This document shows, piece after piece, positions 26,324 through 48,533 of a DNA stretch of 64,000 nucleotides. A program made the translations under genes and the position numbers. Source of the stretch: Justusliebigvirus VEcB; sequence record OZ035773.1; one strand, written 5' to 3'. Position 1 is the stretch's first letter. Each line of letters begins with the position of its first letter. A model generated the notes under the pieces. The model was not told where the DNA came from, searched no databases, and saw only the letters and a program-made list of their open reading frames with translations.

Positions 26324-27040
26324 TTATTTCAGTTTGTAAACAATTACATTTAAACCTTTGTTTACTAGAGTTTCTTCGATCATAAGTTTTACAATATTCC
26401 AAGAACCTCCAGCCAAACCACAACCAAGCATTGGTAAACCTACAATTTTACCGCCTGAAGATACAACATCGTCTCCCATACTATCTAACGCATTGTAGAT
26501 AGCTTCATAATTCAGGTCACGCTTACCTTCCTCACGACGACTATAACCATATTGTCCATATAAATTATAAATTGTCAAATTGTTTTCTGTATACTTAGTA
26601 AACGTACCTAATTTTTTATAATCACCACGTTTAGTGGCACAATCTGCTTTAAACGCACCAGGCCACTTGCTTTTAATTTTTGGTGCAATACCACTACCCA
26701 TAGTGCAAAAACAGTTACAGCAGTGTGCTATAGCGTCTATATCGCCTCTCTCGGCTGCTGCTAAAAGATCACCGTATACCTCAATGATACCTGCTAGATA
26801 ACTTGTTACAATTTCATCTTCCCAGTACATTTGCTCTACACCACCGATCAGTGCAAAGTTTTGTGTAATGCGATCATCAATATAATTAAGACCTGAAACA
26901 TACACAGCATATTCATCCTGTGCTGTAATACCTTGTACACGAATTCTTAAGACACCATCTTTATCTGTTGCTACACGCCCAAAATCTTTTTCTGTAATAT
27001 TGGTGATAGGATCTCCGAAAGTCGTCACTTTATTAGACAT
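26324..27040 (-). CDS. Macro-domain-like protein (ADP-ribose binding/processing candidate)
   Basis: DIDAIAHCCNCFCTMGSGIAPKI and GLPMLGCGLAGGSW resemble macro domain glycine-rich motifs; ATG at 27040 with AGGGGA RBS and 8-nt ATGTCTAA overlap with the upstream gene. Confidence 0.4.
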   Translation of the reverse strand: MSNKVTTFGDPITNITEKDFGRVATDKDGVLRIRVQGITAQDEYAVYVSGLNYIDDRITQNFALIGGVEQMYWEDEIVTSYLAGIIEVYGDLLAAAERGDIDAIAHCCNCFCTMGSGIAPKIKSKWPGAFKADCATKRGDYKKLGTFTKYTENNLTIYNLYGQYGYSRREEGKRDLNYEAIYNALDSMGDDVVSSGGKIVGLPMLGCGLAGGSWNIVKLMIEETLVNKGLNVIVYKLK

Positions 27041-27890
27041 AATAATCCCCTTTAACATTAGATTTGTTGATAATGTTGCTTTCAAAAAATTGACGCAGGA
27101 AATCAAAGTTCTCTTTGTATTTTTCAATATTATTGTAACCTTCTGCAAGGCAACCAAAGAACAGTTGTTCTACATAATACAAAGGAAGTTGTGAAAGTGC
27201 AATTTTAAAATCAACTTCGCTTTGACTCATTAGATACTTAATAGGACGAACCAAACATTTAGCATCAGTTTCTTGCTTAATCATTTTAATAAAAGCTGCC
27301 AGGTTATTGATATAGTTGAAGTTAAGTGCAGCTTCGGTGTTGGCTTCTGTACCTTCATACTTTGCAAAGTACAGGAAAAACGTATCGTTTTCAACACCTT
27401 CTTTGTCTAAAATTTCAATAAGTTTTTCTTCGTGTGTTCCTGTAATATTAACATCATCAATGAAAATCAGAGTTTTATTACCCCAGAAATCACGATTGAT
27501 AGAGAAAGTGTCACCATCGATCAAAGCCTTACGATCTTCTTTGCTAAGAAATCCATAATCATTGATATAACTCACTTTACGATGAACGATATCCCACTCT
27601 ACTGCTTTACCTCCTTTGATAGAGATTAGGTAGTTGAGGTGATCTACAAAATGTTCAGATAACATTGTAGCTGCATTTTTCACATAGTTATATGGAGATG
27701 GAATAACAACAAAACTTTCATTTGCCAGTCGTTCTTCATACTTAGAAAAGAAACTTTCAGCCAGAATGCGTCCCATTCTTTTTGCTGCCTGGTTACTACC
27801 AAACTTTAGTTTGGAATAATCTGCAATGTTAAATTTTGCTTCCTTCAGGTTAGTAAAAGTATTAGCAAAATGTTGAATTTGATTACGCAT
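27033..27890 (-). CDS. Phosphoribosyltransferase (PRTase)-domain protein
   Basis: TLIFIDDVNITGTHEEK resembles the PRPP-binding motif of type I PRTases. Confidence 0.45.
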   Translation of the reverse strand: MRNQIQHFANTFTNLKEAKFNIADYSKLKFGSNQAAKRMGRILAESFFSKYEERLANESFVVIPSPYNYVKNAATMLSEHFVDHLNYLISIKGGKAVEWDIVHRKVSYINDYGFLSKEDRKALIDGDTFSINRDFWGNKTLIFIDDVNITGTHEEKLIEILDKEGVENDTFFLYFAKYEGTEANTEAALNFNYINNLAAFIKMIKQETDAKCLVRPIKYLMSQSEVDFKIALSQLPLYYVEQLFFGCLAEGYNNIEKYKENFDFLRQFFESNIINKSNVKGDYYV

Positions 27891-28539
27891 TAATAAGTTC
27901 CTCTTTTTTAAGTTTAGCCAACAGGTCTTCTGGATTAATAATATGACAGAACTTCATCCCTGTGTCAACAGCTTTTCCATCATAGATCAAACTATCTCCA
28001 ACGTGTAAAATCTCCTCTGGTGCGAGATCAAACGTTACCATTTCATCAAAAGAGAGTTTAAAAAACCTAGGATCTGGTTTACACAAGCAAAACTCGTCAG
28101 AAAAATGCATAAAGTCGAATGGTAATTTTGTTAAGCCAGAATATACAGCTAAGAAACTACCTGGTACAAAATTAGTATTGCTCTTAATACTCAAAGAATA
28201 GGTTGAACTTAGCTCTTCCAACTTCTTGCAAAGCTCAGGGTTCAATATTGGAGGATGTTTTATAAACATTGCTAAACAGTCTCTTTTTAACCCATCTACT
28301 TTATCAAGATCAATGTTCAAACGAGTAGAAAGTGTTACCCAAGCATCCTTAGACGTTCCACAAATGCCTTTTTCTGCTTTTAAATCCAAGAAAGTTTTTA
28401 CCTCTTTGTAGACGGTAGCTGCTTCTGCCTCAGAACAAGAGGTATACTCGGCAATAACCTTGTTGCGCTCTTCTGCATACAAAGGGTTAGCAGTAATAAG
28501 AGTATTCCATACATCAAAAGAAATATGCTTAACAGTCAT
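27883..28539 (-). CDS. HAD-superfamily hydrolase-like protein
   Basis: N-terminal ISFDVWNTLI (HAD motif I variant lacking the second Asp) and C-terminal VGDSLIYDGKAVDTG (motif IV-like). Confidence 0.4.
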   Translation of the reverse strand: MTVKHISFDVWNTLITANPLYAEERNKVIAEYTSCSEAEAATVYKEVKTFLDLKAEKGICGTSKDAWVTLSTRLNIDLDKVDGLKRDCLAMFIKHPPILNPELCKKLEELSSTYSLSIKSNTNFVPGSFLAVYSGLTKLPFDFMHFSDEFCLCKPDPRFFKLSFDEMVTFDLAPEEILHVGDSLIYDGKAVDTGMKFCHIINPEDLLAKLKKEELINA

Positions 28540-28707
28540 TTTAATCCTCCGTCCAAAAGAATATCATCTGCTTAATTTTATTGATTTCTTGATGTAGTAA
28601 CTTTCCAGCATGTGATTGATCTTTAATATTGACAGCAAGAATTTCAAGTTCCGTTAGTTTTTCTTGGATAGCTTTATATTCATCATCTGTAAGCATTTTC
28701 TTCCCCT

Positions 28708-28911
28708 TTAGAATGGTAATCTTTGTATGTCACTTATCCCCACACCAAGAAGTCTAGCAATATCCTTATCTAAAAGCAACTCTTTTTGTTCTAAAATGTT
28801 AATCAGATCTCCTAATACTTCTTTAATGTCACGATCATTTTTAGCAACGTGACCACCTGCCGTATCAACTTTATCTTTAAAAACAAAGTAATGATCCATA
28901 ATACCCTCCAT
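28708..28911 (-). CDS. Hypothetical small protein
   Basis: Intact ORF. Confidence 0.35.
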   Translation of the reverse strand: MEGIMDHYFVFKDKVDTAGGHVAKNDRDIKEVLGDLINILEQKELLLDKDIARLLGVGISDIQRLPF

Positions 28912-28916
28912 ATAAA

Positions 28917-28942
28917 TAAAGGAGGCTTTCGCCTCCTTTTAT
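28917..28942 (-). terminator. Rho-independent terminator (minus strand)
   Basis: GGAGGC-gaaa-GCCTCC hairpin followed by TTTATTTAT right after the ATPase stop. Confidence 0.5.
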
Positions 28943-28945
28943 CAC

Positions 28946-30106
28946 TTAGTAAGAACGACCACCAAACACATACTCTGTGTAGTTTTTACGTTCTTTGTTT
29001 TTAATAACAACTTCAATGTTGTTGCCTTTATCATCGGTGAACACAAAGTGATAACCGTCACCACCCATTGTACGGATGTGTTTTTCATCATACGTCAGCA
29101 AGATACGGTCTACACCCCAGTAGTAGTCACCTTCTTCGTCTTTATCTTCTACGGTAACGACTCCTTCCATTTCAGGAAGATGCTCTTCTCCTGACTTATG
29201 ATCTACAGCTACAACATAACGATTACCGCTAAACAAACCTTGTGCTGTCATACCGTCAATATCTGTATCTGACGAAACATCTCCTGTACGATCTACACCG
29301 TTAACTTTCAGAAGTTTAACTTCTTTTGCAGCATAGCGGTGTTCAGTAATACTGATACCCATTAATGCAAGTGCATCAGAGAATTTGTCATTAGGGTAAC
29401 GGTTAAGTTCTTCTACTAGTGACTGAACAATATCAAAGTTCAAGTCCACGGAAAGATTATAAAGCGTTTCAAAATCTGGTAAAAAGGCTTTGTTCTCCAG
29501 ATTTTTAGCCAGATAGTCATCCATAGTAGCTTTAGGTAGTTTCTTATAGCTAAAGCTGTAGAAAATACGGCTAGGACGATTACGCAAAAATTCTGATACA
29601 TAACCATCATTTTTAGTCAATACAAACAGCTTGTCATAGCCACCAACACCATCCAGCAGGGTAAGCAAACCATCCTGTGCATCTTTTTCAGCATACAGTT
29701 TATCAAATTCATCGATCATAATCATCACAGGTTGTGTGATTTTAGACATAAAATTGATAAAGCCTTCACCATTAAAAGCACTACCGATAGAAATAGTAGG
29801 AATACCCATTTCACGAAGAGCAGAAGATAGCATTTTAGCTTGCAAAGTTTTACCGCTACCCTTCGTACCCTCAAGGAGAACACCTGTGTTTTTACCTTTG
29901 CGGCTAAGGAACGTCTTGATAATACGTTCTGATTTATCATCAGTATCACCGTATGTTACTGAAGGGACTTCCATATCGTTTTTAGGATACAGGAAGAACT
30001 CACCACTTTGGGTAACACCTACACCAAAAGTTCCTGCTGGAATTTCTTCGATATCTGTACCAGACTTCTGACGCAGGAAGATTTGATTGCCGAAGACTGT
30101 AAACAT
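28946..30106 (-). CDS. AAA-family ATPase (paralog A)
   Basis: Walker A GTKGSGKT, Walker B IMIDEFDK, sensor-1 VLTKN, Arg-finger-like RNRPSR; paralog of 45607-46734. Confidence 0.55.
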   Translation of the reverse strand: MFTVFGNQIFLRQKSGTDIEEIPAGTFGVGVTQSGEFFLYPKNDMEVPSVTYGDTDDKSERIIKTFLSRKGKNTGVLLEGTKGSGKTLQAKMLSSALREMGIPTISIGSAFNGEGFINFMSKITQPVMIMIDEFDKLYAEKDAQDGLLTLLDGVGGYDKLFVLTKNDGYVSEFLRNRPSRIFYSFSYKKLPKATMDDYLAKNLENKAFLPDFETLYNLSVDLNFDIVQSLVEELNRYPNDKFSDALALMGISITEHRYAAKEVKLLKVNGVDRTGDVSSDTDIDGMTAQGLFSGNRYVVAVDHKSGEEHLPEMEGVVTVEDKDEEGDYYWGVDRILLTYDEKHIRTMGGDGYHFVFTDDKGNNIEVVIKNKERKNYTEYVFGGRSY

Positions 30107-30126
30107 AGTTTTCTCCTCTATTTAAT

Positions 30127-30597
30127 TTAGTCAGATTCCCAAATGTTGTCTTTCTTAACCCACATTCGTTGATTATCTGAGCCTCTATAACGTTTCGTTG
30201 TTGGTTGATTCATATCATACTTACCATCTATCACTATGTCAACCAGTTTTTTAATTTTTTCTGGAATTTCTTCAAAAAGATATCCTGTATATAAGACAAT
30301 ATCTTTTTTGTTTCCAAAACAATCTCTTACCTTCTCAAGAACATACTCTACAGTGTCAATGTTCTCTTTGTCAAGAGGTTCACCACCTAAAACTGTTAAT
30401 CCTTTAATGAAAGGTCGAGATAAATCTTCCAAGATAAGATCTAATGTTTCAGCAGTGAACTCTTGTCCGTAGTTATACGACCAGGCTTTCTGGTTAAAGC
30501 AGCCACGGCAACCGTGGCTACAACCGCTCACCCACAAAGAGCATCTTACACCGTCACCGTTGAGCATGTCAACAGGTTCATATCCGGCGTAATTCAA
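30127..30597 (-). CDS. nrdG: Anaerobic ribonucleotide reductase activating protein
   Basis: Radical-SAM CxxxCxxC cluster (CSHGCRGC) near the N-terminus; small size; directly downstream of nrdD with a 4-nt overlap. Confidence 0.8.
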   Translation of the reverse strand: MNYAGYEPVDMLNGDGVRCSLWVSGCSHGCRGCFNQKAWSYNYGQEFTAETLDLILEDLSRPFIKGLTVLGGEPLDKENIDTVEYVLEKVRDCFGNKKDIVLYTGYLFEEIPEKIKKLVDIVIDGKYDMNQPTTKRYRGSDNQRMWVKKDNIWESD

Positions 30598-31535
30598 AAA
30601 TGTTTCTCCCTTTCTAGTACCTCTTGCATTTTACCTTTATTATAAGGGCGAGAGTTAGGGGCAGAAAGGTATCCTGACACTCTTCTGATCACAGATATGG
30701 ATTCTTCTTCATGATTGCCACAACTTGGACACTCGAAGCCTTTAGCCGTTGCTTTAAATTCACCATGAAAACCACATTTGAAACACTGATCTACAGGTTG
30801 GTTCACGCCAAAATAAGGAATTTTGTTGTAGGCATAATCTACAAGAGTTTCCAGTGCTTGCAAGTTATTTTTAAGGTTTGGTGTTTCTACATAACCTATG
30901 TTCCCACCATTACTAATTTGTGCAAAACCTTCCTCATAATCCCACTTTTGGAACGGGGTAGTGTGCATCCACACAGGTTGATGGAAAGAGTTTGTCAAGT
31001 AGTCACGATCAATAGAACCAGGATAGCGATCATTTAATGCTTTGGCAAATTTATAGCACAAGGATTCTGCTGGTGTTCCATACAAACTAAAAGCTAAACC
31101 AGAACGTTCTTTAAATGTGCCACAGATATCCTTCATATATTGAAGGATGTTTTTACCCATTGCTTTTGGATTGGTGTTACCTGGGTATAAAATCTCCATA
31201 GCTTCTGCTAAACCTACATAACCGATACTAATAGAGGCATAACCACCTTCAAATAGTTTACCAATCTCTTCATTAGCTTCTAATCGAGCTAAAGCCCCTT
31301 CCATAAACAATGTAGGGTTTTGAGATGCTTTGGTATGTCTAATACGGTTAACACGTAGCATATGTGCCTTATACGCCATCTCCATATGTTGTTCCAACAG
31401 TTCAGTAAATAAGATGCCCTTTTCACGGGACTCTGCTGCAATGATAGGTAAGTTTAAAGAAACTACGCCTAAGTTGAAACGACCATCATATTTTTCACCT
31501 TGCTCTGTTGCATAGTATGACAAGAAACTTCTACA
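30594..31535 (-). CDS. nrdD: Anaerobic ribonucleoside-triphosphate reductase, exon 2
   Basis: C-terminal zinc ribbon CxxC...CxxC and glycyl-radical motif RVSGYL; frame open upstream of the listed start; proposed exon start at TGT (Cys) of CRSFL. Confidence 0.8.
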   Translation of the reverse strand, partial: CRSFLSYYATEQGEKYDGRFNLGVVSLNLPIIAAESREKGILFTELLEQHMEMAYKAHMLRVNRIRHTKASQNPTLFMEGALARLEANEEIGKLFEGGYASISIGYVGLAEAMEILYPGNTNPKAMGKNILQYMKDICGTFKERSGLAFSLYGTPAESLCYKFAKALNDRYPGSIDRDYLTNSFHQPVWMHTTPFQKWDYEEGFAQISNGGNIGYVETPNLKNNLQALETLVDYAYNKIPYFGVNQPVDQCFKCGFHGEFKATAKGFECPSCGNHEEESISVIRRVSGYLSAPNSRPYNKGKMQEVLEREKHF

Positions 31536-31814
31536 CATTATGTTCAAAGTGGCTCGCAAGGCCACTCCCGCACCATTACGTGCTGCTGCATGTCACCATG
31601 CAGATCAGACTATATCTTCATGCTTAAAGCATGTCTACCATTTGGGGTGTCATAGGCTTACACCCTACGCTGCTACATTCATCACAGCTAGTCGTTAGGC
31701 ATTTCGTAATAGTACCCCCTTCTTCTGTGTTGGGAGTTCTGTTACGTTTAGCACGGGATTGTCTCGTTGAGAGTTCCCCCGTTTAGGCAGATTTTACATG
31801 AGCAGTTATAGTTT
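31536..31814 (-). ncRNA. Group I self-splicing intron (ORF-less, 279 nt) in nrdD
   Basis: Exon 1 ends ...AUGGGU, intron ends ...AUAAUG (omega G); intron GCUCAUG can pair with exon CAUGGGU to form P1 with a U-G at the splice site; R-like GCCUAACGACUAGCU and S-like AAGAUAUAGUCU elements present (P7 GACUA/UAGUC). Confidence 0.75.
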
Positions 31815-32672
31815 ACCCATGCTTGTGACGCGACCATCTGAAGATCCTGTAACTTCTTTGTTTAAAGGTACAGAGATAAAATCAGGATAAATGCGTTCAG
31901 CACAACACTCCATTGCCAGTTGCTTCAAATCATAGTTTGGATCGCCAGCTTTCATGTTAACACCATCTTCCAAGAAGAAGATAACTTTAGGAAACACAGG
32001 AGTTACCCTATCTTTTCCCAACCCTTGTTTGTGCACCATTAGGTAGTTTTTAGTGATCATTCTACCAAAAGCAGAGGTATCCAAACCTAAACTAATTGTT
32101 ATAAAAGGTGACTGACCATTTACACTCATTAGAGTGTTCACTTGGTAGATTAAAGTTTGCATTGCATCATAGACCTGTTTATCTACCATACGCATAGCAA
32201 TATCATAATCGCCAACATCGGCATATATTTTATTAAAACTTGCTTTAACGTATTGACTAAGCCCAGTATCAACATGTGCACAAGTTTGTCCACCATATTG
32301 GCTAGAAGCTACTGCTTGAATAATTTGAGTTAGGACAGTAGTCGCTACACCGATAGATTTTGGTTTTTCAATATGTGCATTACCAATACGGAAACCGTTC
32401 TCAAGCATATCTTGGTAATTTACCAGGCAACAATTAGTTAAAGGTGAGAGTAAATAATCTAAATCGTGGATGTGACCATACCCACTTTTATGCCATTCTG
32501 CTAAATCTTCCGGTAAAATATGGGTCATTGCCATGTGCTTGCTTAGGATACCTGCTAGTAAGTCTCGGTGAGTATTAACAATCATTGCAGGTTTGTTTGC
32601 ATTTTCACGAGTAAATTCTTCGGATGTTTGTTCGAGGAATCCGATTACATCCTCATATAGTTTTTGGGTCAT
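31815..32672 (-). CDS. nrdD: Anaerobic ribonucleoside-triphosphate reductase, exon 1
   Basis: N-terminal half of the reading frame; GGAGGA RBS upstream; terminates 2 codons past the proposed 5' splice site. Confidence 0.8.
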
Positions 32673-33729: not shown

Positions 33730-34164
33730 TTAGTTTAAAATTTCTTTGGCAATGGTAGAAGCAAGTTTTCCATCATATTGATTAGGATACTCTGCTTTAA
33801 GGTGCTTCATCATATCTGGCATTTTCTTGCCTGTCAAGGCAAATTCTTCAGCAATCGCTCGAAGGTCATCTTCAGATAGCATTTCTGGTAAATATTTTTC
33901 CAGAGTGGTGATATCACGCATAGCTCGCTCACATTTGCTAAGGGAAGCATTAACTTTCTTAAGTGAGTCTAGCTCCTCTTTAGCGTGTGCAATACCAATC
34001 TTAACAATGTTAATCATAATATCATCTTCTGATTTATTTAGATTTGCCTTTTGAGTACGAGCAAGGTCAAACTCACCAATAATATTAGTTAACAAAGCAA
34101 AAGCACCCTTATCGGTTGTACGTGCTAAGATACGATCTGCTTTCATTTGTGTCACAATAGACAT
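33730..34164 (-). CDS. GatB/YqeY-domain protein
   Basis: KYLPEMLSEDDLRAIAEEF ... MPDMMKHLKAEYPNQYDGKLASTIAKEIL matches the YqeY/GatB C-terminal domain pattern. Confidence 0.6.
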   Translation of the reverse strand: MSIVTQMKADRILARTTDKGAFALLTNIIGEFDLARTQKANLNKSEDDIMINIVKIGIAHAKEELDSLKKVNASLSKCERAMRDITTLEKYLPEMLSEDDLRAIAEEFALTGKKMPDMMKHLKAEYPNQYDGKLASTIAKEILN

Positions 34165-34176
34165 TCTATTCTCCTC

Positions 34177-34749
34177 TTATTTGCTAATGCTTTGAATGTT
34201 ATTTACAACACGGTTTATTGCCAGTGAAGCCCTAGGCTCCGCAATACCTGTTGCATAGATATAAGGATGACCTTTTGGAGACTCCCTCATACCGAATGAA
34301 CCTAATTCTAAACCATATTCATCCTCTACGTCAACCCCAATATTAGTGGGTACTAAATATGTTTTAACTCCATAGTAAGTAGAGAAGAAACAGCGCATAG
34401 AGTTAGCATACTCTTCAATTGTAGCATCAGGATAGAACTCAATCAACTCCAATTTCAAGAAAATATTAAAATGGGTATCATCTAAATTTTCTTCTGTGCG
34501 GTAACATGGTGTTAGTGCCATATACGGATTACCTACTGCAAATTCAAAACCATCCTTCTCCATTTGCAGGAAAGATTGTTCTGCACTAGCTACATAGTAT
34601 TTACCGTTAGGATGCCCTAATGGGCGATCCTCTTTATTTTCTGGTAGTGTATACGCCAGTATATCAGCATCCACGAGATATGGAACTTCTAACATTTGTG
34701 CAAATCGACCATAGTAATCAATAGCTTGAGCTATTACTGCAACATTCAT
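34177..34749 (-). CDS. Hypothetical protein
   Basis: Intact ORF. Confidence 0.45.
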   Translation of the reverse strand: MNVAVIAQAIDYYGRFAQMLEVPYLVDADILAYTLPENKEDRPLGHPNGKYYVASAEQSFLQMEKDGFEFAVGNPYMALTPCYRTEENLDDTHFNIFLKLELIEFYPDATIEEYANSMRCFFSTYYGVKTYLVPTNIGVDVEDEYGLELGSFGMRESPKGHPYIYATGIAEPRASLAINRVVNNIQSISK

Positions 34750-35008: not shown

Positions 35009-37783
35009 TTAGTTTACCAGTTTATTTATATCTGGTAAAAGATTTATTTCACCTAAGAAATCACCTTCACCTTCCTCTAGCCAACTCTCATATGCTTGTG
35101 CATGATTATAGTTACCATCAAAAGAATCTGCAACAAATTTTTCTACAGTTTTTCGAGATGTGCCAGCACCAAATACACCAAGTTTAATACCATTGATCGG
35201 TAAAGTGGTGCTTGTGGGTACTTTCTCTGTTGCAACACGGTTGATATCTATAATCTCCTGTACGGTTGTATTCCATTGTAAGCATTTAACACAACGGGTA
35301 TGCGCTACATACAGTAGGTTTCGCTCTGCCTCTTCTAGTCCTACCCATTCACCAGTCTTTTTATCATAATTGGAAGGAAAATCATTAGCAACAATAACCT
35401 GATCCCACTCCAAACCTTTAGACTTGTGTGCTGTAGTCAATGTGACTTTTGCTGTAGGAGAATTTCTATGCGTTCTAAGGGTATGTGCTATAGTGTTTGC
35501 CTTACCAGAAACTACAATGTTTAACAAGCGTTTAGCATCTGGATCAGCCTCTGCACACTCAACAAATTCATCCCAGTCTGCGTAAGGTAATACAGTTTCA
35601 TGTTTTACTTTCTCAATATCTCCTCTCCGAAGAGCATTAACACTATCTACCATAGAGATAAAATCCCTGGTATCTACGTTAATAATAATTTCTTCCCCAT
35701 CTGCAATACGATCCATTGCCTCCATAAGCAAGGTTAAATTCTTGCGAAAGATGATAGTGTAAGGTTTTGTATAGTCTACAACATCTGATTTGTAGCTACC
35801 TACTACAGTATCAAAGCCTTTACCAACCAAAGGATGACGCAAAGGTTCTTTATCGCTTAAAATCATATTGGCAATGTTTGCCACTTTGGGGCCAAAACGG
35901 AAGCAAGCAGTTAATGGAAGTTCTGCCCCATACTTAGCTGTTTCAATCATCATATTAGAGCTACCTCTAAATTGATAAATGCAGTTGTGGCTAAGAATTT
36001 CATTGCCAAAGAAGTTAGCAGTATCCTCTACTTCAATATCATAATAGATACCCTCACTATCTACAATGTCCACAATCTCTTCTGCCGTTACAGTATCACC
36101 ATCTTTTACCAACACAGACATGCCTTTAAACAAACCCGCTGCCGGAATTAAGTTATATTTGGCACTGTTCACAGAGGACATGCATTCTTTTAAAGATGCA
36201 AACGGAACTATTTCAAGGATCTTTTGTGCAAAACTCAATGCTTCACGATAAGAATTGAAATATTTACGTACACGGTAACGACCTTCCAATTTAGCAGCAC
36301 TTACGCTTACACCTGCTTTAATCAGTGAAGAATAGATCGGCATTTCACTTTCTGTCCACTCAAAACTAACTTGTGTTCCTTTACAACCTTGCGCTCGCAA
36401 AGTCACTGTTAGCATTTTTCTTTCATCTACTGCACAATTGATGCTGTGCCAGTGTGGATAAGCAAAATGATAATCTTTATCCTCTAAAAGTTTAAAACCA
36501 TTTTGTCCGAATTGTTCAAAGATGTTATTGATCTTTTCTTGATTAATGCCGCGTGAACTTGCTTCAAATACACAAGTAGGAATGCCATATTGTAAACTGT
36601 AAGCCATTTCTTTTTCCATAGCAGCTTCACGGTTTTCAACAATATCCAACACCCATAATTTCTGTGCTTTTTCAGAACGTGTACGTTGCCCCAGTTTAGA
36701 AAAACCTTCTTTATCATCGAATTTGTTAGTGATCCCTACTCGGAAACCTAAATCTTTCCTCCACATTAGGTATACCACCATCTGATCATCTTTCAGAACA
36801 TAGGATGAAGCCCAAATACGATGGTTATGTGTCATATCTAAAGTTTTACCTGTGGCAGTAATAATATTCCTACCTTTTGTACGTGTAGATAAAGTCTTAT
36901 TTGTTACTTTTCTAAATGTAATTTTACCATTAGAATAAGACTCTACCTTATCACCGATTTGTAGGTCTTTCATTGTAACCTGACCATTCTCGGTATTAAG
37001 TACCGTGTTTTCCGACACACATTGGAATTCGTCACCCACTACCACAATTTGTTTTGCAGATTTAGCATTTCGCAGAATAGACAAGAATGCAGGGTTAACA
37101 TCCTGGAATTCATCACCAAAAATAATATCATAACCAAGATCAGCACCAGACAATTCAAACAATTTTACATAGGTGTCATGCGTCATCAAAGTATCTGTAT
37201 TAGGATCAATGCGCTCTCGCCACAATTGTTTTGCATACTTAACTACTTCTGTAATTAGTTTGTGTTCGTTAATACCTTTTCTTTTAATATCTGCAAGATG
37301 TACACTAGGAAAATGTTTACGGCTGATAAAAGGATCATCCGAAAATTCAAACTTACCTACGGTTTGCTTGATCATTAAACCGATCATAGCACGAGTTAAA
37401 AGTGTTTTCCCTCGTTTATCAATAAGATTATTAATCTTAAATTTCTTTGCTATCTCGCTACCTGTACCTGCAACGTTAACATACTGTCCTTCTGGTCGTG
37501 ACAGTTTTGCACGTAAACGATGGTCCAGGAATTGATAGCAAATAGAATGCAATGTACGGCATTCTACATTTAGTGGCATCTTACGTCGTGCTTCTTCTGC
37601 CATGCTTTTATTGAAAGCTAAGTAAAGAATGCGATCTTCTGTACTGTTAGCCAGCAAATAAAGTGTTGACGTTTTGCCTGATCCAGATTTAGCTTGGATA
37701 GTTAAAAAGCGATGGTCTGGAAAAGCCTCCTTAATAGCTGTTTGCTCTTCTGTTGGAGTGAAGCTCAACTCTTTCTTAGCCAT
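35009..37783 (-). CDS. SF1 (UvrD-like) DNA helicase interrupted by an intein
   Basis: Walker A AKSGSGKT, DEFQD box, motif III split as VVGDEFQ | intein | IYQFRGS; start placed at the ATG at 37783 with AGAGAGG RBS. Confidence 0.8.
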   Translation of the reverse strand: MAKKELSFTPTEEQTAIKEAFPDHRFLTIQAKSGSGKTSTLYLLANSTEDRILYLAFNKSMAEEARRKMPLNVECRTLHSICYQFLDHRLRAKLSRPEGQYVNVAGTGSEIAKKFKINNLIDKRGKTLLTRAMIGLMIKQTVGKFEFSDDPFISRKHFPSVHLADIKRKGINEHKLITEVVKYAKQLWRERIDPNTDTLMTHDTYVKLFELSGADLGYDIIFGDEFQDVNPAFLSILRNAKSAKQIVVVGDEFQCVSENTVLNTENGQVTMKDLQIGDKVESYSNGKITFRKVTNKTLSTRTKGRNIITATGKTLDMTHNHRIWASSYVLKDDQMVVYLMWRKDLGFRVGITNKFDDKEGFSKLGQRTRSEKAQKLWVLDIVENREAAMEKEMAYSLQYGIPTCVFEASSRGINQEKINNIFEQFGQNGFKLLEDKDYHFAYPHWHSINCAVDERKMLTVTLRAQGCKGTQVSFEWTESEMPIYSSLIKAGVSVSAAKLEGRYRVRKYFNSYREALSFAQKILEIVPFASLKECMSSVNSAKYNLIPAAGLFKGMSVLVKDGDTVTAEEIVDIVDSEGIYYDIEVEDTANFFGNEILSHNCIYQFRGSSNMMIETAKYGAELPLTACFRFGPKVANIANMILSDKEPLRHPLVGKGFDTVVGSYKSDVVDYTKPYTIIFRKNLTLLMEAMDRIADGEEIIINVDTRDFISMVDSVNALRRGDIEKVKHETVLPYADWDEFVECAEADPDAKRLLNIVVSGKANTIAHTLRTHRNSPTAKVTLTTAHKSKGLEWDQVIVANDFPSNYDKKTGEWVGLEEAERNLLYVAHTRCVKCLQWNTTVQEIIDINRVATEKVPTSTTLPINGIKLGVFGAGTSRKTVEKFVADSFDGNYNHAQAYESWLEEGEGDFLGEINLLPDINKLVN
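35984..37021 (-). mobile_element. Intein in helicase (346 aa, Cys1 ... His-Asn, +1 Cys)
   Basis: Begins CVSENTVLNTENG (block A), block B GKTLDMTHNH, ends IYYDIEVEDTANFFGNEILSHN followed by Cys; inserted in helicase motif III. Confidence 0.8.
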
Positions 37784-37784
37784 T

Positions 37785-38261
37785 TCAACCTCTCTTAATT
37801 TGTTTAACAAGCATAGGAACAAAATCTCGTTTTAAAATTTGTTCAATAATATGATCAGGTAGCTGTTGGAAATTATAATTAAAAGCTACTGTCTCACCTT
37901 TAGGTGTTTCTACCCGCACATATAACATGTTACGAAGTTTATCCACTTGTGCTGTATATTCTAAACCATGTAATTGATGCATTGCAAACATCAAATCATC
38001 AGTTTCAGTTTGGAATCTATCATTTGCTTGCATTAAGGATAAGGTAAAAGGTAGATTTTCCCTAAGAGCCACCTTCTTAGGAACTAGTGAAGGAAAATAC
38101 TCACCAATAACTTCCTGTGTAAGCTGGATACACTCTTTTTCAAGTTGGTTTTGTTCCTTAAGTTCACAAACACTTTTTTGTAAAGTGTTAACCTCTTTTT
38201 GCAAAGCTGCTAGTTGAGCACTTAACTTTCTTTTTTGATTACGACCAAAACGTTTAGACAT
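37785..38261 (-). CDS. Hypothetical protein
   Basis: Intact ORF, N-terminal coiled coil. Confidence 0.45.
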   Translation of the reverse strand: MSKRFGRNQKRKLSAQLAALQKEVNTLQKSVCELKEQNQLEKECIQLTQEVIGEYFPSLVPKKVALRENLPFTLSLMQANDRFQTETDDLMFAMHQLHGLEYTAQVDKLRNMLYVRVETPKGETVAFNYNFQQLPDHIIEQILKRDFVPMLVKQIKRG

Positions 38262-38806: not shown

Positions 38807-39172
38807 TTAAACGTTTTCTAAATCTTTTAAGGCATTACCCAACGTTAGAACAATAACATCGTTTGCTGCCTCTTCCCCATTGATATTGGTGAAATTTGGT
38901 GTGACAAAAGTAACCATATAAAACTCGTCCACCTGGAAGACAGCAATAACACCATCCATCTTAACATCTTGACGAAAGGAAAAACCAAGCATCTTCTCTT
39001 GCAAAGGCATATCCCCTTCCTTCATTACTGCCAGGGAGTTTTCAGGAATGTTATATTTATCTGCTCCGATGTAGATGTACGTAATGTTATCTTTATCGTG
39101 ATGATACAGGGTTGCTTTTTCCATATCTAAACCTGACAGATCAAATACGTTAATTTCTTGTGTAGTCTTCAT
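38807..39172 (-). CDS. Hypothetical protein
   Basis: ATG at 39172 with GGAGGA RBS. Confidence 0.45.
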   Translation of the reverse strand: MKTTQEINVFDLSGLDMEKATLYHHDKDNITYIYIGADKYNIPENSLAVMKEGDMPLQEKMLGFSFRQDVKMDGVIAVFQVDEFYMVTFVTPNFTNINGEEAANDVIVLTLGNALKDLENV

Positions 39173-39536
39173 AAATATCCTCCCAAATCCAATAATCATC
39201 TGTGTAAGTAGGATGCCTTTTATCCCACTCTGTTCTAGCCCAAGCAACCGCTGCTACCAACACATCACCATGACAAGGTTGAGGTGCGCAGAAGCAAACT
39301 AAGTCTTTCCCTTCTAATTCTAATAAATCTTCAAGAGTGATTTTACCACAACGAATTTGCTCCCACAACCACTCTTTATATCTTTGTATAGTTGATCCTC
39401 GTGGTTCATCATCCTTTAACTTAAAAGGATTTGCAAACTTTGAGGCTTTTAACCCCATATGAGGCATAGCTCTGCCAATGTACACTGCACCTTCAGGTAT
39501 TACTTTACCTAAGTGGTAAAAATTTAATACTTTCAT
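39150..39536 (-). CDS. DUF4326-like protein
   Basis: VYIGR ... FANPF ... CFCAPQPCHGDVL resembles the DUF4326 pattern. Confidence 0.4.
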   Translation of the reverse strand: MKVLNFYHLGKVIPEGAVYIGRAMPHMGLKASKFANPFKLKDDEPRGSTIQRYKEWLWEQIRCGKITLEDLLELEGKDLVCFCAPQPCHGDVLVAAVAWARTEWDKRHPTYTDDYWIWEDIYEDYTRN

Positions 39537-39537
39537 A

Positions 39538-39888
39538 TTAACCCAAACACATCTGTGCAATCAAGCCCTGTATAAATTTATTAGCTTCTTTACTGTCGTA
39601 GTCAGTCTCTTCTGGATATCCATCTTCATCGTACACAACTGTACCTTCAATATACCCTGCCTCAATTAAGGCGCGGATTATATCAAATTGCCAGCATGAG
39701 TTACCAAATGGACGTTTACCATTAAAACACTCTTCTTCTCTCCATAACGTAGAGAGTAGTTGTCGGAAATATTCCCGTACAGTGACAGTACCAAGATCTG
39801 AATCCTCAAACATAACATCCAAGGCATCAGGATTGCTTTTCTCTACATAAGGAATATATTTAACACCATTAATAGTTACATCAAGCAT
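39538..39888 (-). CDS. Hypothetical protein
   Basis: Intact ORF. Confidence 0.4.
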   Translation of the reverse strand: MLDVTINGVKYIPYVEKSNPDALDVMFEDSDLGTVTVREYFRQLLSTLWREEECFNGKRPFGNSCWQFDIIRALIEAGYIEGTVVYDEDGYPEETDYDSKEANKFIQGLIAQMCLG

Positions 39889-44085: not shown

Positions 44086-44113
44086 TTGACATACTGTTTT
44101 ATTGTGCTAATCT
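44086..44113 (+). promoter_or_regulatory. sigma70-like promoter for the rightward block
   Basis: TTGACA (44086-44091), 16-nt spacer, TAATCT (44108-44113); 33 nt upstream of the ATG at 44146. Confidence 0.5.
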
Positions 44114-44145
44114 TAATGCATACACAAATGAGAGGAGATAAACGA

Positions 44146-44697
44146 ATGCAAAACATCGATCTGACTTGGATAGAAGCCAAAGAAGCAATGTTAAAAGGCA
44201 AACGCGTTAAACATAAATACTTTTGCGAAGGAGAATGGTTTGAAATGCGTAACCGATCCATTGTAGATGAAAAAGGGAATGACATGCAACAATGGTTCAA
44301 AAATGAAATTTGGCAGGGAACAGGTTGGTCTGTAGTTGAAGAGCAGCCTAGCTCAAGCGCACTGTTTAGCCCTATTATGTATTGCGTTATCGGTGCTTTA
44401 GTTGTTGATCACGGGATTGCAGTGGAAAAAGAATGCTGGGAAGAGGTATCTTTTTTCAACCTGGCTTCTTATGCAAAAAGCCATATGCACTTGTTTGAAG
44501 AAGGGGATGAATTTGTTCTTCGTATGCGATATGGCAAAGAATTCAGATTACCACTTGATAATGATGTAGACACTGTTGTAAAATGGTTAGCAGAGCATTA
44601 CGCTTACGATGCAATTTGTGGTCGCAGCTTCGGCAACGAACGCTGGGACATGATTTGTGAAAAATATGATTTTGAGCCGGAGTACGGAGTTTTATAA
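44146..44697 (+). CDS. Hypothetical protein
   Basis: ATG at 44146 with GAGAGGAG RBS; the longer track ORF start would precede the promoter. Confidence 0.5.
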   Translation: MQNIDLTWIEAKEAMLKGKRVKHKYFCEGEWFEMRNRSIVDEKGNDMQQWFKNEIWQGTGWSVVEEQPSSSALFSPIMYCVIGALVVDHGIAVEKECWEEVSFFNLASYAKSHMHLFEEGDEFVLRMRYGKEFRLPLDNDVDTVVKWLAEHYAYDAICGRSFGNERWDMICEKYDFEPEYGVL

Positions 44698-44948
44698 TGT
44701 TAAGTATCACACCTAAAATGATAACAGAAGACGAAGCAGACTTTATTTTCAAATGTGGACGTGTATGGAGAGAATTCACAAAAGGAAATGAAGTGGTTGT
44801 TGTTGTTGAACACAAGATATCTATTCAGGATCTGTTTGGACAATATGTTGATGTTATTAAATTAGGTATTGACAAGGGTTTAGTTGAGGTGTTAACATTA
44901 GATCAAGTTGAAGCAGAGCACCTCGATAAAGTGGTGGTTGAATTTTAA
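44697..44948 (+). CDS. Hypothetical small protein
   Basis: Intact ORF, translationally coupled to the upstream gene. Confidence 0.4.
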   Translation: MLSITPKMITEDEADFIFKCGRVWREFTKGNEVVVVVEHKISIQDLFGQYVDVIKLGIDKGLVEVLTLDQVEAEHLDKVVVEF

Positions 44949-44968
44949 AATACAGACGGGAGAAAGGT

Positions 44969-45142
44969 ATGAGTTTCTTTGTTACAGTATTTATGGCTAT
45001 CTGGATTGTAGTCTCACTCGTTCTTTTCCTGGTGGGTTGTCTGGAAGAGATTAAGAAAGCGGTTATTTGCGGTTTCTTTGGCTTTATTATCTCTCCTGCC
45101 TGGATGTGGTTCTTCATTATGATTGGTTTCCTTAAAAGGTAA
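44969..45142 (+). CDS. Small membrane protein (57 aa), not in the ORF track
   Basis: ATG preceded by GGGAGAAAGG; two hydrophobic helices. Confidence 0.4.
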   Translation: MSFFVTVFMAIWIVVSLVLFLVGCLEEIKKAVICGFFGFIISPAWMWFFIMIGFLKR

Positions 45143-45156
45143 GTGAGGAATAAAGA

Positions 45157-45594
45157 ATGAGTAAAACAAACGCAATCGCAGATAAAGCAACGGATGTACT
45201 TCTGAACATGGTTAACGTCACTATTCAAACAATGAGTGATGTTGTGGAGTTTGGAAAACAACAAATTCCAGAAGTAATCCATCAATTATTAGTGTGGAAA
45301 GCAGTATCCGCAGGTTTATGGCAACTTTTTAGTATTTGCTTTATGTTTATTACTTTTATTGCTGTGCGGAACCTCGTAAAAGCAATTAAAGATAAAGAAT
45401 GCCTGTGGTCACGAGATCGCTATGGTGAAGTATCTGCTTTACCTATTGTTGGTCTTGTTGTCTGTGCTTTCTTTTTCTTTTTAGGATTTGTTATTTTCTT
45501 TTCGAATTTTGATTGGCTAAAAATTATTATTGCACCAAAAGTGTATCTGATTGAATTTGCTGCTGATTTAATTCGTTCATCTCAACAAAGATAA
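45157..45594 (+). CDS. Membrane protein
   Basis: GTGAGGA RBS; two long hydrophobic segments. Confidence 0.5.
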   Translation: MSKTNAIADKATDVLLNMVNVTIQTMSDVVEFGKQQIPEVIHQLLVWKAVSAGLWQLFSICFMFITFIAVRNLVKAIKDKECLWSRDRYGEVSALPIVGLVVCAFFFFLGFVIFFSNFDWLKIIIAPKVYLIEFAADLIRSSQQR

Positions 45595-45606
45595 AAGGGG
45601 GTTAAA

Positions 45607-46734
45607 ATGAAATACACGATTTATGGTGATATTGTAAGTGTAAATAAAGATATGGGCGTGGAATCTAACTATCTTCCACCTGGATTCTATACTGTTAGTC
45701 GTGATCCCCTTGGCAATTACTTTTTAAGCCGTGGTAATCTAACAGGTGTACCGGATGTTCTGTATGGTGAAACAGAAAAACGAGCAAATCACGTTATTCG
45801 TACATTCCATCGCCGGAGTGCACAAGGTAAAAACACAGGCTTGCTTCTGACAGGAACTAAGGGTAGTGGTAAAACTATGTTAGCCAAACTCATTAGTCGT
45901 GACCTTGTAGAAGAAGGTATTCCAACTATTATGGTTACTCAAGCCTACAGTGATGCTAATTTCATTGAACTTATTAGCAAGATCACAGACAAAGCAGTGA
46001 TTATTTTTGATGAATTTGATAAAGTATATGAGAAGAAACAAGATCAAGAAGCACTTCTCACTTTGTTAGATGGTACTGGCAGTGGTAATAAACTGTTTAT
46101 TCTAACTAAAAACAGTGGCTTTATCTCTGAATTCTTTCTAAATCGTCCTAGTCGTGTGTTTTATAATTTTAATTATGATAAAATCTCACTAGAAACTATG
46201 ATTGACTATTTAGATAAAAACCTGGATAACAAAGCACACTTTGATAATTTCCAAAGGCTTTGGGATGTAAGTTTAGAGTTGTCCTTTGATGTGATCCAAG
46301 GTATAGTAGAAGAACTTAATTTCTACCCTGATTTATCCTTTAAAGAATGCATCTCTATGATGGGCGTTTCTTTGGGTGGTGGTAATAAGTGGGATATCAG
46401 CAGCGTTGTTATTAATGGGAAACTTCAGAAAGTTAGCTGGGTATCTAGTTGGCATAACTTCACACCTGCAATCTTTTTAGGTGGCTCGTGCACACTAGAC
46501 GTGTACTTGTCATCTCCAAGTGATGCAGATTCTAAAGAAGCCCTTGCTAATAGCTCTTACGTGGTTTTTGATGATGAAGGAGATGCTCGAATTCCATTGA
46601 ATGCGACAAAAATGAAAGCAGATCTTATTACAGGCGGTAAAATCGTTGTGTTTAGTGATGATCCAGAAGATTCTTTCCGTATTGTTCTGGAACCAACTAT
46701 CACCAATGGTGCAACTTTGGCAAGCGTGTTTTAA
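45607..46734 (+). CDS. AAA-family ATPase (paralog B)
   Basis: Walker A GTKGSGKT, Walker B IIFDEFDK, sensor-1 ILTKN, RPSRVFY; paralog of 28946-30106 with a divergent C-terminal domain. Confidence 0.55.
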   Translation: MKYTIYGDIVSVNKDMGVESNYLPPGFYTVSRDPLGNYFLSRGNLTGVPDVLYGETEKRANHVIRTFHRRSAQGKNTGLLLTGTKGSGKTMLAKLISRDLVEEGIPTIMVTQAYSDANFIELISKITDKAVIIFDEFDKVYEKKQDQEALLTLLDGTGSGNKLFILTKNSGFISEFFLNRPSRVFYNFNYDKISLETMIDYLDKNLDNKAHFDNFQRLWDVSLELSFDVIQGIVEELNFYPDLSFKECISMMGVSLGGGNKWDISSVVINGKLQKVSWVSSWHNFTPAIFLGGSCTLDVYLSSPSDADSKEALANSSYVVFDDEGDARIPLNATKMKADLITGGKIVVFSDDPEDSFRIVLEPTITNGATLASVF

Positions 46735-46749
46735 GTAAGCCAGCAAATA

Positions 46750-46776
46750 AAAACCCGCTCCGGCGGGTTTTCTTGT
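46750..46776 (+). terminator. Rho-independent terminator
   Basis: AAACCCGC-tccg-GCGGGTTT hairpin followed by TCTTGTATT. Confidence 0.55.
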
Positions 46777-46808
46777 ATTGATGCCAGATTTAATAAGAGG
46801 AGTAATAG

Positions 46809-47981
46809 ATGACAGCACCAAAATCATGGGAACAATATAAAGAAGAATTAACACCCCTTGCTAAAAATCGCAATATTCAAATCCTGGGTTATGTTGGTGA
46901 ATGGAAAGGGAACAAGACTAAACTTAAGCTATCTTGCCCTAAACATGGAGAGTGGAACACCACGAACATTAATGATTTTAAGAAGGGACGTGGTTGTCCT
47001 ATCTGTTCTGGTAAGAAGCCGTTAACATGGGAAACAGAATTGCCGATCTTGGAAGAGATAGCACAGAAGAGGGGGTATCAGGTGTTAGGGTACGTGGGAG
47101 AATGGAAAGGGAATAAAACAAAACTTGATTTGTTGTGTCATTGTGGTAATAAATGGGATACTACAAGTATTAACAATTTTAAACGTGGTAGCGGTTGTCC
47201 ACAATGTAAGAGGGAGAGACAAACAATGTCCGACGATCAACATATTGCAGATTTCTTTTCTACAGGGGAATTTAAGGAAGGCACTATCTTCACCAATACA
47301 GGGAAACGTAACAAGCGTGATGCAGTATGGATGGTTGAGTGTCCTGTTTGCTCCCATGATGAATATGTTCAAGCAGGTGTTTGTGATGGTAAATTTTACT
47401 CTGCAGGACATAACCTTAAACAAGGGTATATTCCGTGTCGTTGTGGGAACTATCAGTATACAGAAGACCAGATCACCTATAGGGTAAAAAAGGAAGTAGA
47501 AGGGAAAGGGTATGTCTGGGTAGATTGGATTACCAAACCATCTTCTATAGGTAAGTTTAAATATCTTTGTCTTGTGCATGGGGAGCAGATAGGGAGTGCT
47601 CGTAATTTATTAAGCCTCGGTCAAGGTTGTCCACAGTGTGCTGGTCATAGTCAGCAGCAATTGTATGTTAATGTTGTTAAAGATAATGGTATTATAGTTG
47701 CTCTTAAGTTTGGTATATCTAAAGATAGCGATAGACGATTAAACGGTCAAAATAGCCGTAATCTGTTTTTTATGGAGCGTATTTGTTTATATGATTTTAG
47801 CACAGTGAAACAATGTAGGGCTGCTGAAAGAGCTATAAAGAAAAAATTAAAAACTGGTATTTTAACGGCAAGAGAGTTGAAAGATGGTTATACAGAAACA
47901 GTAAGTGTTTCTGATTTGGAAAATCTTCAAAAAATTATTACACAATATGGTGGCAAATTAGTATACAGTAAGGAGGTGTAA
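46809..47981 (+). CDS. Zinc-ribbon repeat protein with C-terminal T5orf172/GIY-YIG-like region (tentative)
   Basis: Two about 55-aa repeats LGYVGEWKGNKTKL...GCPxC plus further CxxC pairs; C-terminal segment loosely resembles T5orf172-type domains. Confidence 0.3.
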   Translation: MTAPKSWEQYKEELTPLAKNRNIQILGYVGEWKGNKTKLKLSCPKHGEWNTTNINDFKKGRGCPICSGKKPLTWETELPILEEIAQKRGYQVLGYVGEWKGNKTKLDLLCHCGNKWDTTSINNFKRGSGCPQCKRERQTMSDDQHIADFFSTGEFKEGTIFTNTGKRNKRDAVWMVECPVCSHDEYVQAGVCDGKFYSAGHNLKQGYIPCRCGNYQYTEDQITYRVKKEVEGKGYVWVDWITKPSSIGKFKYLCLVHGEQIGSARNLLSLGQGCPQCAGHSQQQLYVNVVKDNGIIVALKFGISKDSDRRLNGQNSRNLFFMERICLYDFSTVKQCRAAERAIKKKLKTGILTARELKDGYTETVSVSDLENLQKIITQYGGKLVYSKEV

Positions 47982-48533
47982 ATGCGGATTACTGATAAGT
48001 ATGTGTTCTTCTTCTCGGCAAAAGATGAATTTAGCAACTGGTATCTATCATCTTTTATTGAACCTTTAGCTCCCAAGTATAATAATTCTATTACAAGTTC
48101 TGTTGAATTTACTTGTGTGGAACAATATATGATGTGGAGAAAAGCATGTTTGTTTTATGATTACAACATTGCATCTTCTATTTTAACCGGAGATCTAAGA
48201 TATACAGGAGAAAAAGAACAGGCATATTATAAGCGACTAGGTAGATTAGTTAAAGATTACGATGAAGCTACTTGGACTTCTTTACGGGAGAAGATTGTCA
48301 AGCGTGGTTTGTATCTTAAATACACACAAAATGAAGATCTCAAAAATAAACTTATAGCTTACGCAGATAAGGAGTTTGTAGAAGCAAGCCCTTATGATTC
48401 TATTTATGGTATCAAAATTGGGATGTGGGATCGGGACGTGGAAAATAAGGATTGTTGGAAAGGACAAAATCTTTTAGGAAAATGGCATACAGACCTTGCT
48501 GTTTATCTAAAAGCACAATCTGATATTTCCTGA
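47982..48533 (+). CDS. NADAR-domain (YbiA-like) protein
   Basis: FSNWY, EQYMMWRKA, EASPYDSIYGIKIG and GQNLLGKWH match the conserved NADAR/DUF1768 blocks. Confidence 0.7.
   Translation: MRITDKYVFFFSAKDEFSNWYLSSFIEPLAPKYNNSITSSVEFTCVEQYMMWRKACLFYDYNIASSILTGDLRYTGEKEQAYYKRLGRLVKDYDEATWTSLREKIVKRGLYLKYTQNEDLKNKLIAYADKEFVEASPYDSIYGIKIGMWDRDVENKDCWKGQNLLGKWHTDLAVYLKAQSDIS

Follow-up and report, generated by a model that had tools for sequence, protein, structure and literature searches.

A phi92-like Escherichia phage encodes an AdfN ortholog, a predicted AdfM-type macrodomain protein and a DUF4326 protein

The window analysed here, a 64,000-nucleotide (nt) stretch of Justusliebigvirus VEcB DNA (sequence record OZ035773.1), encodes a NADAR protein, a macrodomain protein (hereafter macro protein) and a DUF4326 protein. 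The source DNA is that of a phi92-like Escherichia myophage (Justusliebigvirus, Stephanstirmvirinae), with 97.6% DNA identity over 22.6 kb around these genes against Escherichia phage PaulScherrer (BASEL Bas60), and 97-98% against phi92 and many other Justusliebigvirus myophages with genomes of about 147 kb. Gene order also agreed with the Bas60 annotation, where the counterparts are labelled "putative macrodomain protein" (bas60_0070), "hypothetical protein" (bas60_0086, the DUF4326 protein) and "putative YbiA-like N-glycosidase" (bas60_0111); identity of the window proteins to their Bas60 counterparts is 98% for NADAR, 99% for macro and 98% for DUF4326. In PHROGs, the families correspond to phrog_1017 (NADAR), phrog_464 (DUF4326) and phrog_335 (macro). 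The three open reading frames (ORFs) had been proposed in a first-pass annotation, made from the sequence alone; all of them exist at the coordinates given there, and the profile check that it had asked for placed each domain call above the Pfam curated cut-off. The genes and their parts are as follows, where AF2 stands for AlphaFold2 models.

26324-27040, minus strand: macro protein, 238 amino acids (aa) (Pfam Macro).
26789-27040, minus strand: residues 1-84 of the macro protein, an N-terminal extension specific to phi92-like phages (homolog coverage, AF2).
26324-26788, minus strand: macrodomain proper, residues 85-238, SCO6735-type, ALC1-like and AdfM-like (Pfam, PDB, Foldseek, PADLOC).
39150-39536, minus strand: DUF4326 protein, 128 aa (Pfam DUF4326).
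47982-48533, plus strand: NADAR protein, 183 aa, ortholog of AdfN^Bas60 (Pfam NADAR and 98% identity to bas60_0111).

Mechanically extended, the macro and DUF4326 ORFs reach upstream TTG codons (26324-27157 and 39150-39560, respectively), and the ATG starts chosen in the first-pass annotation proved sensible. For DUF4326, ATG 39536 is the start annotated in Bas60. For the macro gene, ATG 27040 is preceded 7 nt upstream by the Shine-Dalgarno sequence AAAGGGG and overlaps by 8 nt with the stop codon of a phosphoribosyltransferase (PRTase) gene, as ATGTCTAA. In Bas60 the start is annotated 18 nt further upstream (27058; 244 aa); ATG 27040 has the better ribosome-binding site, in addition to this typical overlap.

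The NADAR protein matched PF08719 over residues 13-168 of its 183 (E 3.1e-36; 125.5 bits against a cut-off of 35.1), and over its whole length it is identical to AdfN^Bas60 at 179 of 183 positions. The four substitutions (N62S, A96D, I146M and A178T) are conservative, and all of them spare the 17 columns that are invariant in an alignment of 52 sequences. The residues followed were those corresponding to E88 and K95 of the E. coli C7 NADAR (E43 and K50 in P. nicotianae), along with an acidic residue at E125/D171. By alignment, E47, K54, E134, D139 and Y142 of the window protein correspond to E43, K50, E125, D130 and W133 of the P. nicotianae NADAR (8bau), and the catalytic Glu and Lys (E47 and K54) as well as the YbiA-type Glu (E134) are invariant across the 52 homologs. 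The position of E134 is occupied by Asp in DarT1-linked antitoxins and by His in T4-type phage NADARs; the YbiA-type Glu agrees with the separate clade published for AdfN^Bas60.

The NADAR of BASEL phages Bas60-62 was named AdfN^Bas60 by Johannesman et al. (Nat Commun 2025; PMC11825919), who reported that it neutralised DarT1 in E. coli without phage, brought RB69, T5 and Bas25 back to full titre on a DarTG1 host, and had no effect for T5 on DarTG2, which indicated guanine specificity (PMC11825919). The window NADAR is practically the same protein at the same genomic position, after an AAA ATPase and a CapR/T5orf172 protein, free-standing and with no adjoining DarT; it differs in the four substitutions described above and in that its CapR/T5orf172 neighbour is 77 codons shorter. 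With AdfN^T4 (gp30.3) and DarG1 it shares the NADAR fold, the conserved Glu/Lys pair and the reversal of guanine-ADP-ribose on DNA predicted for it by orthology, whereas it belongs to another NADAR clade, with Glu at E134 instead of the DarG1 Asp or the T4-type His. Moreover, AdfN^Bas60 needs no other phage factors, unlike AdfN^T4 (PMC11825919). Regarding the orphan status of the gene, whose neighbours are the CapR/T5orf172 protein, the AAA ATPase and small ORFs, no ADP-ribosyltransferase domain (Pfam) and no DarT (PADLOC) were detected among the upstream neighbours scanned, the small downstream ORFs lying outside that scan.

In this context, the window NADAR is by orthology the putative AdfN of this phage lineage, an anti-DarT1 guanine-ADP-ribose DNA glycohydrolase, and this part of the finding is already published. 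DarT1 puts ADP-ribose on guanine of single-stranded DNA and so blocks phage replication; NADAR would cut the guanine-ribose bond and free the ADP-ribose, upon which replication would resume.

The macro protein matched PF01661 over residues 106-217 of its 238 (E 2.3e-07; 31.2 bits against a cut-off of 22). In a sequence search of the PDB, the top match was SCO6735 (5e3b; E 1.6e-15), followed by BT1257, TARG1 and DarG, with Poa1p (E 0.0097) and viral macrodomains ranking far lower. The AF2 model of residues 85-238, with a predicted local distance difference test (pLDDT) score above 90, retrieved TARG1 (TM-score 0.91, target-normalised), BT1257, DarG and SCO6735 in Foldseek (E 2e-12 to 4e-9). Furthermore, the PADLOC DarG profile matched with E 1e-13, covering only the DarG macro part (profile positions 6-144 of 329). 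Residues H106, N109, Q163, G165, G206 and G208 correspond to SCO6735 H24, N27, Q85, G87, G126 and G128; in 52-53 homologs including T4 Tk.4, N109, Q163 and G206 are invariant and H106 and G208 are at least 90% conserved, while G165, present in the window macro, nevertheless lies outside these invariant or near-invariant columns. Sequence identity to T4 Tk.4/AdfM is 30% (E 9e-18), and N109 aligns with the catalytic N23 of the PhiKZ AdfM (gp104).

SCO6735 removes ADP-ribose that is linked to thymidine in DNA, and it rescues cells from DarT; it has no TARG1/DarG lysine, and its N27S, Q85A and G128E mutants are inactive (PMC9411070). T4 Tk.4 was named AdfM, and its knockout sensitises T4 to DarTG2 (bioRxiv 10.1101/2025.11.20.689424). 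PhiKZ gp104 is an independent AdfM that removes DarT2 marks in vitro, with N23A being impaired (Cell Rep 2026; PMC13309987). By its homology to SCO6735, T4 AdfM and DarG, the window macro protein is most likely an SCO6735-type orphan anti-DarT2 hydrolase. Its substrate would be single-stranded DNA that DarT2 has ADP-ribosylated on thymidine within TNTC motifs, and it would strip off the ADP-ribose by a water-mediated mechanism positioned by Asn109 and Gln163 as in SCO6735, and not through the Lys/Asp dyad of TARG1.

Likenesses and differences among these enzymes help to place the window protein. SCO6735 of Streptomyces coelicolor is its best solved-structure sequence match (31% identity), with the same His/Asn/Gln/Gly positions and no catalytic Lys/Asp; in contrast, Val25 of SCO6735 is Cys107 in the window, in place of the mobile-loop Lys89 the window protein has Ser167 and then Arg-Arg, the roughly 84-residue N-terminal extension has no counterpart in SCO6735, and SCO6735 is a bacterial SOS-regulated genome-protection enzyme and not a phage gene. 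T4 Tk.4/AdfM is of the same macro family and shares the motifs IAHxCNCFxTMGSGxA and PxxGxGxxxGxW. PhiKZ gp104 is only 24% identical, and a Lys in its FPTKDNW segment stands, by eye, at the place expected for the DarG-type Lys. Unlike both AdfMs, the window macro has the extra N-terminal region and lies in an operon with PRTase and HAD genes. DarG2 and TARG1 have the same ALC1-like macro fold (TM-score 0.81-0.91, target-normalised).

Among 50,697 phage records, 2973 carry the macro family, 1828 the DUF4326 family and 724 a NADAR of the window type. In only 64 of the 2973 macro records was more than 80% of the macro protein covered. Among metagenomic homologs, only P0241 and P0243 have the N-terminal extension, which is otherwise confined to phi92-like phages, and it is absent from the macro proteins of phAPEC8, PsgM04F and T4. 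Beta strands were predicted for it in the AF2 model with a pLDDT of 33-57, a low value given that only two other sequences carry the extension.

The DUF4326 protein matched PF14216 over residues 10-94 of its 128 (E 1.5e-21; 77.3 bits against a cut-off of 25). The signature GR...NP...CxCxPxxCHGD is present, and G21, R22, N36, L74, C81, C83, C88 and H89 are invariant in 57 sequences; in the AF2 model (pLDDT 91), the C-x-C-x4-C-H loop is located between a strand (79-81) and a helix (89-107). At 50% identity, this very large family falls into 22,010 clusters (E <=0.001). Fusions among 34 multidomain relatives involved NADAR in seven cases (two of the DarT1-associated type), SLOG in four to five, DprA-like domains in three and Macro in one or two. 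These fusions independently reproduce reports of the Aravind laboratory and thus tie DUF4326 to ADP-ribose or nucleotide processing. In those reports (Iyer et al. 2021 and 2022), DUF4326 was predicted to belong to a rhodanese-phosphatase clade (PMC9503650, PMC7824862) and to process terminal phosphates of ADP-ribose products (PMC9503650). With respect to the first-pass view of the protein as an ADP-ribose factor, the family assignment held, and the link to ADP-ribose comes only through the fusions of its relatives and the published prediction (PMC9503650).

A literature search yielded no biochemically characterised DUF4326 member, and the comparison with the NADAR profile gave an hhalign probability of 0.1%. 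T4 NrdA.1 is a DUF4326 homolog (hhalign probability 98.9%). It shares with the window protein the motifs GR...N and LxCxCxPxPCHGD, and each is a stand-alone protein (about 110-130 aa) of a large myophage; on the other hand, the T4 gene overlaps the nrdA start, while the window gene lies among small, unannotated genes in which no function was recognised, about 6.5 kb from nrdD. The T4 gene (locus L011, 3672-3998; NC_000866 142671-142997) is annotated as hypothetical, and the phrog_24867 label "ribonucleotide reductase NrdA-like" probably derives from the gene name and not from similarity to NrdA. Drawn from the fusions and the conserved residues, the weakest step of our explanation is that DUF4326 is most likely a small cysteine-dependent enzyme, which would act on an ADP-ribose-derived or ribose-phosphate small molecule, in line with the proposal of the Aravind laboratory.

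Taken together, it is likely that this phi92-like phage carries two independent "orphan antitoxin" enzymes against two DarTG defence types, along with a third, uncharacterised domain. The first-pass annotation had cast these proteins as candidate counter-defence factors against DarT-like toxins or against signals derived from the cleavage of nicotinamide adenine dinucleotide (NAD). The first half of this proposal survived, for NADAR through the neutralisation of DarT1 by the 98%-identical AdfN^Bas60, and for the macro protein by homology to the TARG1/DarG/SCO6735 class and to T4 Tk.4/AdfM. For an action on NAD-cleavage (Thoeris-type) signals no evidence was found: Pfam searches of about 50 ORFs in the window gave no NAD-salvage or ADP-ribosyltransferase (ART) domain, and no further NAD/ADP-ribose genes (NARP1/2/3, ART, Sir2, Nudix or KptA). 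NARP3 (PMC13464706) was also considered and rejected, having no relation to the macro, NADAR or DUF4326 genes.

Several points weigh against the macro and DUF4326 parts of this reading. Identity of the macro protein to tested relatives is only 24-31%, and its role in phi92/Bas60 is a predicted one. It has neither the Lys84/Asp125 dyad of TARG1 nor DarG Lys80, and carries Q163 and A210 there (Q163 being assigned to the Lys position via the alignment to SCO6735 Q85). The protein ends with the macrodomain, without the C-terminal DarT-binding domain of DarG, and has the unmodelled extension of about 84 residues. A small-molecule substrate is conceivable, given that the gene is translationally coupled to a PRTase-HAD pair. 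Proteins and O-acetyl-ADP-ribose are further substrates of macrodomains of this class. For DUF4326, no significant solved-structure or profile match backs any catalytic assignment, the Foldseek search of its model giving a best E of 2.4, with a MAP-kinase phosphatase at rank 2 (E 3.7) and only weak PTEN and MKP5 matches. Moreover, T4 nrdA.1 overlaps the nrdA start within the td-nrdA-nrdB operon, and the transposon screens of T4 with DarTG1 and DarTG2 did not report it as a hit; in the DarTG2 screen, tk.4 was the single significant hit and nrdA.1 went unmentioned (bioRxiv 10.1101/2025.11.20.689424).

A broader outcome would be that DUF4326, T4 NrdA.1 included, represents a new, very widespread class of small cysteine-dependent enzymes that act on ADP-ribose-derived or ribose-phosphate products and complement NADAR and macro hydrolases in phage counter-defence or nucleotide salvage and, separately, that the phi92-type macro protein, with its extension and its coupling to the PRTase-HAD pair, might have a substrate beyond DarT2-modified DNA; we regard this as rather unlikely.

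The three genes might also form one pathway, in which NADAR and macro would free ADP-ribose from DNA and DUF4326 would then process the ADP-ribose or a ribose-phosphate remnant. This agrees with the DUF4326 fusions to NADAR (7/34) and Macro (1-2/34), with the prediction of the Aravind laboratory on terminal phosphates, and with the co-occurrence of the same trio in T4 (30.3/AdfN, Tk.4/AdfM and NrdA.1). However, distances of 12 kb and 8.4 kb separate the macro, DUF4326 and NADAR genes, each of which belongs to its own transcription unit, with NADAR on the opposite strand, past a strand switch near 44 kb; AdfN^Bas60 alone is enough to neutralise DarT1 and to rescue unrelated phages (PMC11825919); and the T4 observations speak the same way, since nrdA.1 is embedded in the td-nrdA-nrdB operon and tk.4 was the only hit in the DarTG2 screen. 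A single pathway is thus improbable. Considering the distances, the separate units, the opposite strand and the sufficiency of AdfN^Bas60, the three genes are best seen as separate accessory genes with a common chemical theme and not as one system. The T4 trio suggests a recurrent toolkit of large virulent myophages rather than an operon, and finding all of these domains together in a 150-kb myophage is nothing out of the ordinary, because the families are common in phage records and T4 has all three.

The macro protein could alternatively be a housekeeping ADP-ribose-1''-phosphate phosphatase or O-acetyl-ADP-ribose deacetylase, clearing, for instance, by-products of tRNA repair or splicing. 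Names in public records lean in this direction: PHROG 335 and many GenBank records call the family "phosphatase", the T4 Tk.4 entry bears the note "A1pp phosphatase motif", and bacterial homologs appear in some sources as "O-acetyl-ADP-ribose deacetylase"; Poa1p structures were matched as well, at lower rank, and tRNA-synthetase-like genes are found at 33730-34749. The best matches are, however, ALC1-like DNA-active enzymes and not Poa1p or MacroD (E 1.6e-15 against 0.0097 for Poa1p), the SCO6735 active-site residues are kept, the homolog Tk.4 has a genetic anti-DarTG2 phenotype, and no KptA/Tpt1, 2H or RNA-ligase domain was detected among the scanned ORFs, all of which make the housekeeping role quite improbable.

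The genomic setting of the macro gene opens another alternative, and the genes that it involves are listed here.

19198-19794, minus strand: TerD (Pfam, 98.2 bits).
19867-20661, minus strand: vWA-TerF-like protein (Pfam, 133.8 bits).
21908-23011, minus strand: TelA (Pfam, 118.3 bits).
24790-25767, minus strand: TerC (Pfam, 133.1 bits).
27033-27890, minus strand: ComF-like type I PRTase (Pfam PRTase_3, 144.2 bits).
27883-28539, minus strand: HAD-family hydrolase, overlapping the PRTase start by 8 nt (Pfam Hydrolase, E 3.1e-05, 24.9 bits).

The PRTase conserves the phosphoribosyl pyrophosphate (PRPP) loop motif FIDDVNITG, and the HAD score of 24.9 bits is slightly below the cut-off of 26.4. HAD, PRTase_3 and macro, the last of the three, overlap by 8 nt each, so that they would be translationally coupled. 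The four Ter components (TerD, TerC, TelA and vWA-TerF), the PRTase and the HAD protein, six of six, are found within 19198-28539. The phage Ter module is fairly complete, and in Bas60 its genes are mostly annotated as hypothetical; the position of the HAD-PRTase-macro operon inside it had been overlooked in the first-pass annotation.

Ter systems are predicted to make a nucleoside-like signal via PRTase and HAD (Anantharaman, Iyer and Aravind 2012, as summarised in PMC7824862), and the macro protein could belong to this pathway, handling a phosphoribosyl or nucleoside-like small molecule instead of ADP-ribosylated DNA. The translational coupling, the location of the operon within the TerD/vWA-TerF/TelA/TerC module and the predicted signal are consistent with such a role, as is the order HAD-PRTase-macro-x-TerC...TelA, which phAPEC8, Pseudomonas phage PsgM04F and several metagenomic contigs retain with macro identities of only 48-67%.

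To evaluate this linkage, PRTase_3 loci were gathered from phage, viral-contig and bacterial-genome collections; the bacterial-genome scan gave two contigs of metagenome-assembled genomes (MAGs) only, probably phage. HAD lies directly upstream of PRTase_3 in all 19 PRTase-bearing loci examined. Against the macro protein as a partner, nine loci with a PRTase no more than 50% identical (from Rhizobium, Caulobacter, other viral contigs and one bacterial MAG contig) keep the HAD-PRTase pair, sometimes with TerC or TerD near, and have no macro gene within 6 kb. In addition, the macro family is about 19 times commoner than PRTase_3 (2973 against 156 phage records), T4 Tk.4 and a Pectobacterium phage homolog sit in unrelated contexts, and two contigs of closer relatives (L014 and L015) have an extra ORF between PRTase and macro. 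The idea of the macro protein as an integral Ter/PRTase/HAD component was rejected, the linkage being limited to one lineage, and its membership of the pathway is very doubtful. Because divergent PRTase loci lack macro and the macro family is far commoner, the macro-PRTase adjacency is most simply an inherited synteny within one lineage.

As an observation on the pair itself, the overlapping HAD-PRTase_3 genes are conserved in Rhizobium, Caulobacter and other large phages. In Rhizobium phage RHph_TM61 (locus L007, 5857-6420) they are followed by one small ORF and then by an annotated bifunctional nicotinamide mononucleotide (NMN) adenylyltransferase/Nudix hydrolase, a context which hints that the PRTase_3 product might touch pyridine-nucleotide metabolism.

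Finally, a role of NADAR as a YbiA-like metabolic N-glycosidase cleaning up riboflavin intermediates, with no part in defence, is scarcely credible: it fits the YbiA-type Glu E134, which is neither the DarT1-associated Asp nor the T4-type His, the Bas60 label "putative YbiA-like N-glycosidase" and the name "ribA/ribD-fused uncharacterized protein" of homologs in some sources, and is contradicted by the 98%-identical AdfN^Bas60, which neutralises DarT1 and rescues phages from DarTG1 (PMC11825919).

The NADAR gene is preceded by two genes that the first-pass annotation had described as an AAA ATPase paralog and a zinc-ribbon repeat protein, and both descriptions were borne out.

45607-46734, plus strand: AAA ATPase, paralog of 28946-30106 on the minus strand (Pfam AAA, 38.9 bits).
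46809-47981, plus strand: zinc-ribbon repeat protein with three CapR homology domains and T5orf172, its stop abutting the NADAR start (Pfam).

The two AAA ATPases are 39% identical over 375 aa (E 1e-81). The first (28946-30106) is separated by two small ORFs from the HAD-PRTase-macro operon downstream of it, and the other (45607-46734) lies two genes before NADAR and is followed by a terminator-like hairpin at 46750-46771; Bas60 names the second "FtsH-like protease", and only an AAA domain was detected. In the zinc-ribbon protein, CapR scored 146.3 bits in three stretches and T5orf172 scored 20.9 bits. This protein has 390 aa in the window and 467 aa in Bas60, and such variation in length between near-identical phages is consistent with a mobile or rapidly changing gene.

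Elsewhere in the window, a group I intron (31586-31860, minus strand; Rfam RF00028, 72.5 bits, E 1.8e-16) divides the anaerobic ribonucleotide reductase gene nrdD into the ORFs 31806-32672 and 30594-31565; the Bas60 nrdD is uninterrupted (1830 nt), so the intron is variably present within the genus. The DNA polymerase ORF (8138-11452, minus strand) is exactly as long as its Bas60 counterpart, which contains an intein, and that of the UvrD-type helicase (35009-37822, minus strand) exceeds its own intein-containing counterpart by only 13 codons; given this agreement in length, both probably carry inteins in the window too.

In brief, most of the finding was known before: a publication covers the NADAR protein, the macro family already goes by the name AdfM, and the DUF4326 associations have been described. 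With the NADAR characterised and the macro family named, little is gained in practice. DUF4326 is of interest as a very large, uncharacterised family whose members occur alongside these hydrolases and are frequently joined to them, and its T4 member NrdA.1 lends itself to genetics. As predicted from their sequences, phi92-like phages (Stephanstirmvirinae) would carry one enzyme per DarT chemistry, NADAR for guanine and macro for thymidine. The pair mirrors that of T4 (AdfN and AdfM), in keeping with the idea that large virulent phages are under strong and general selection by DNA ADP-ribosylation.

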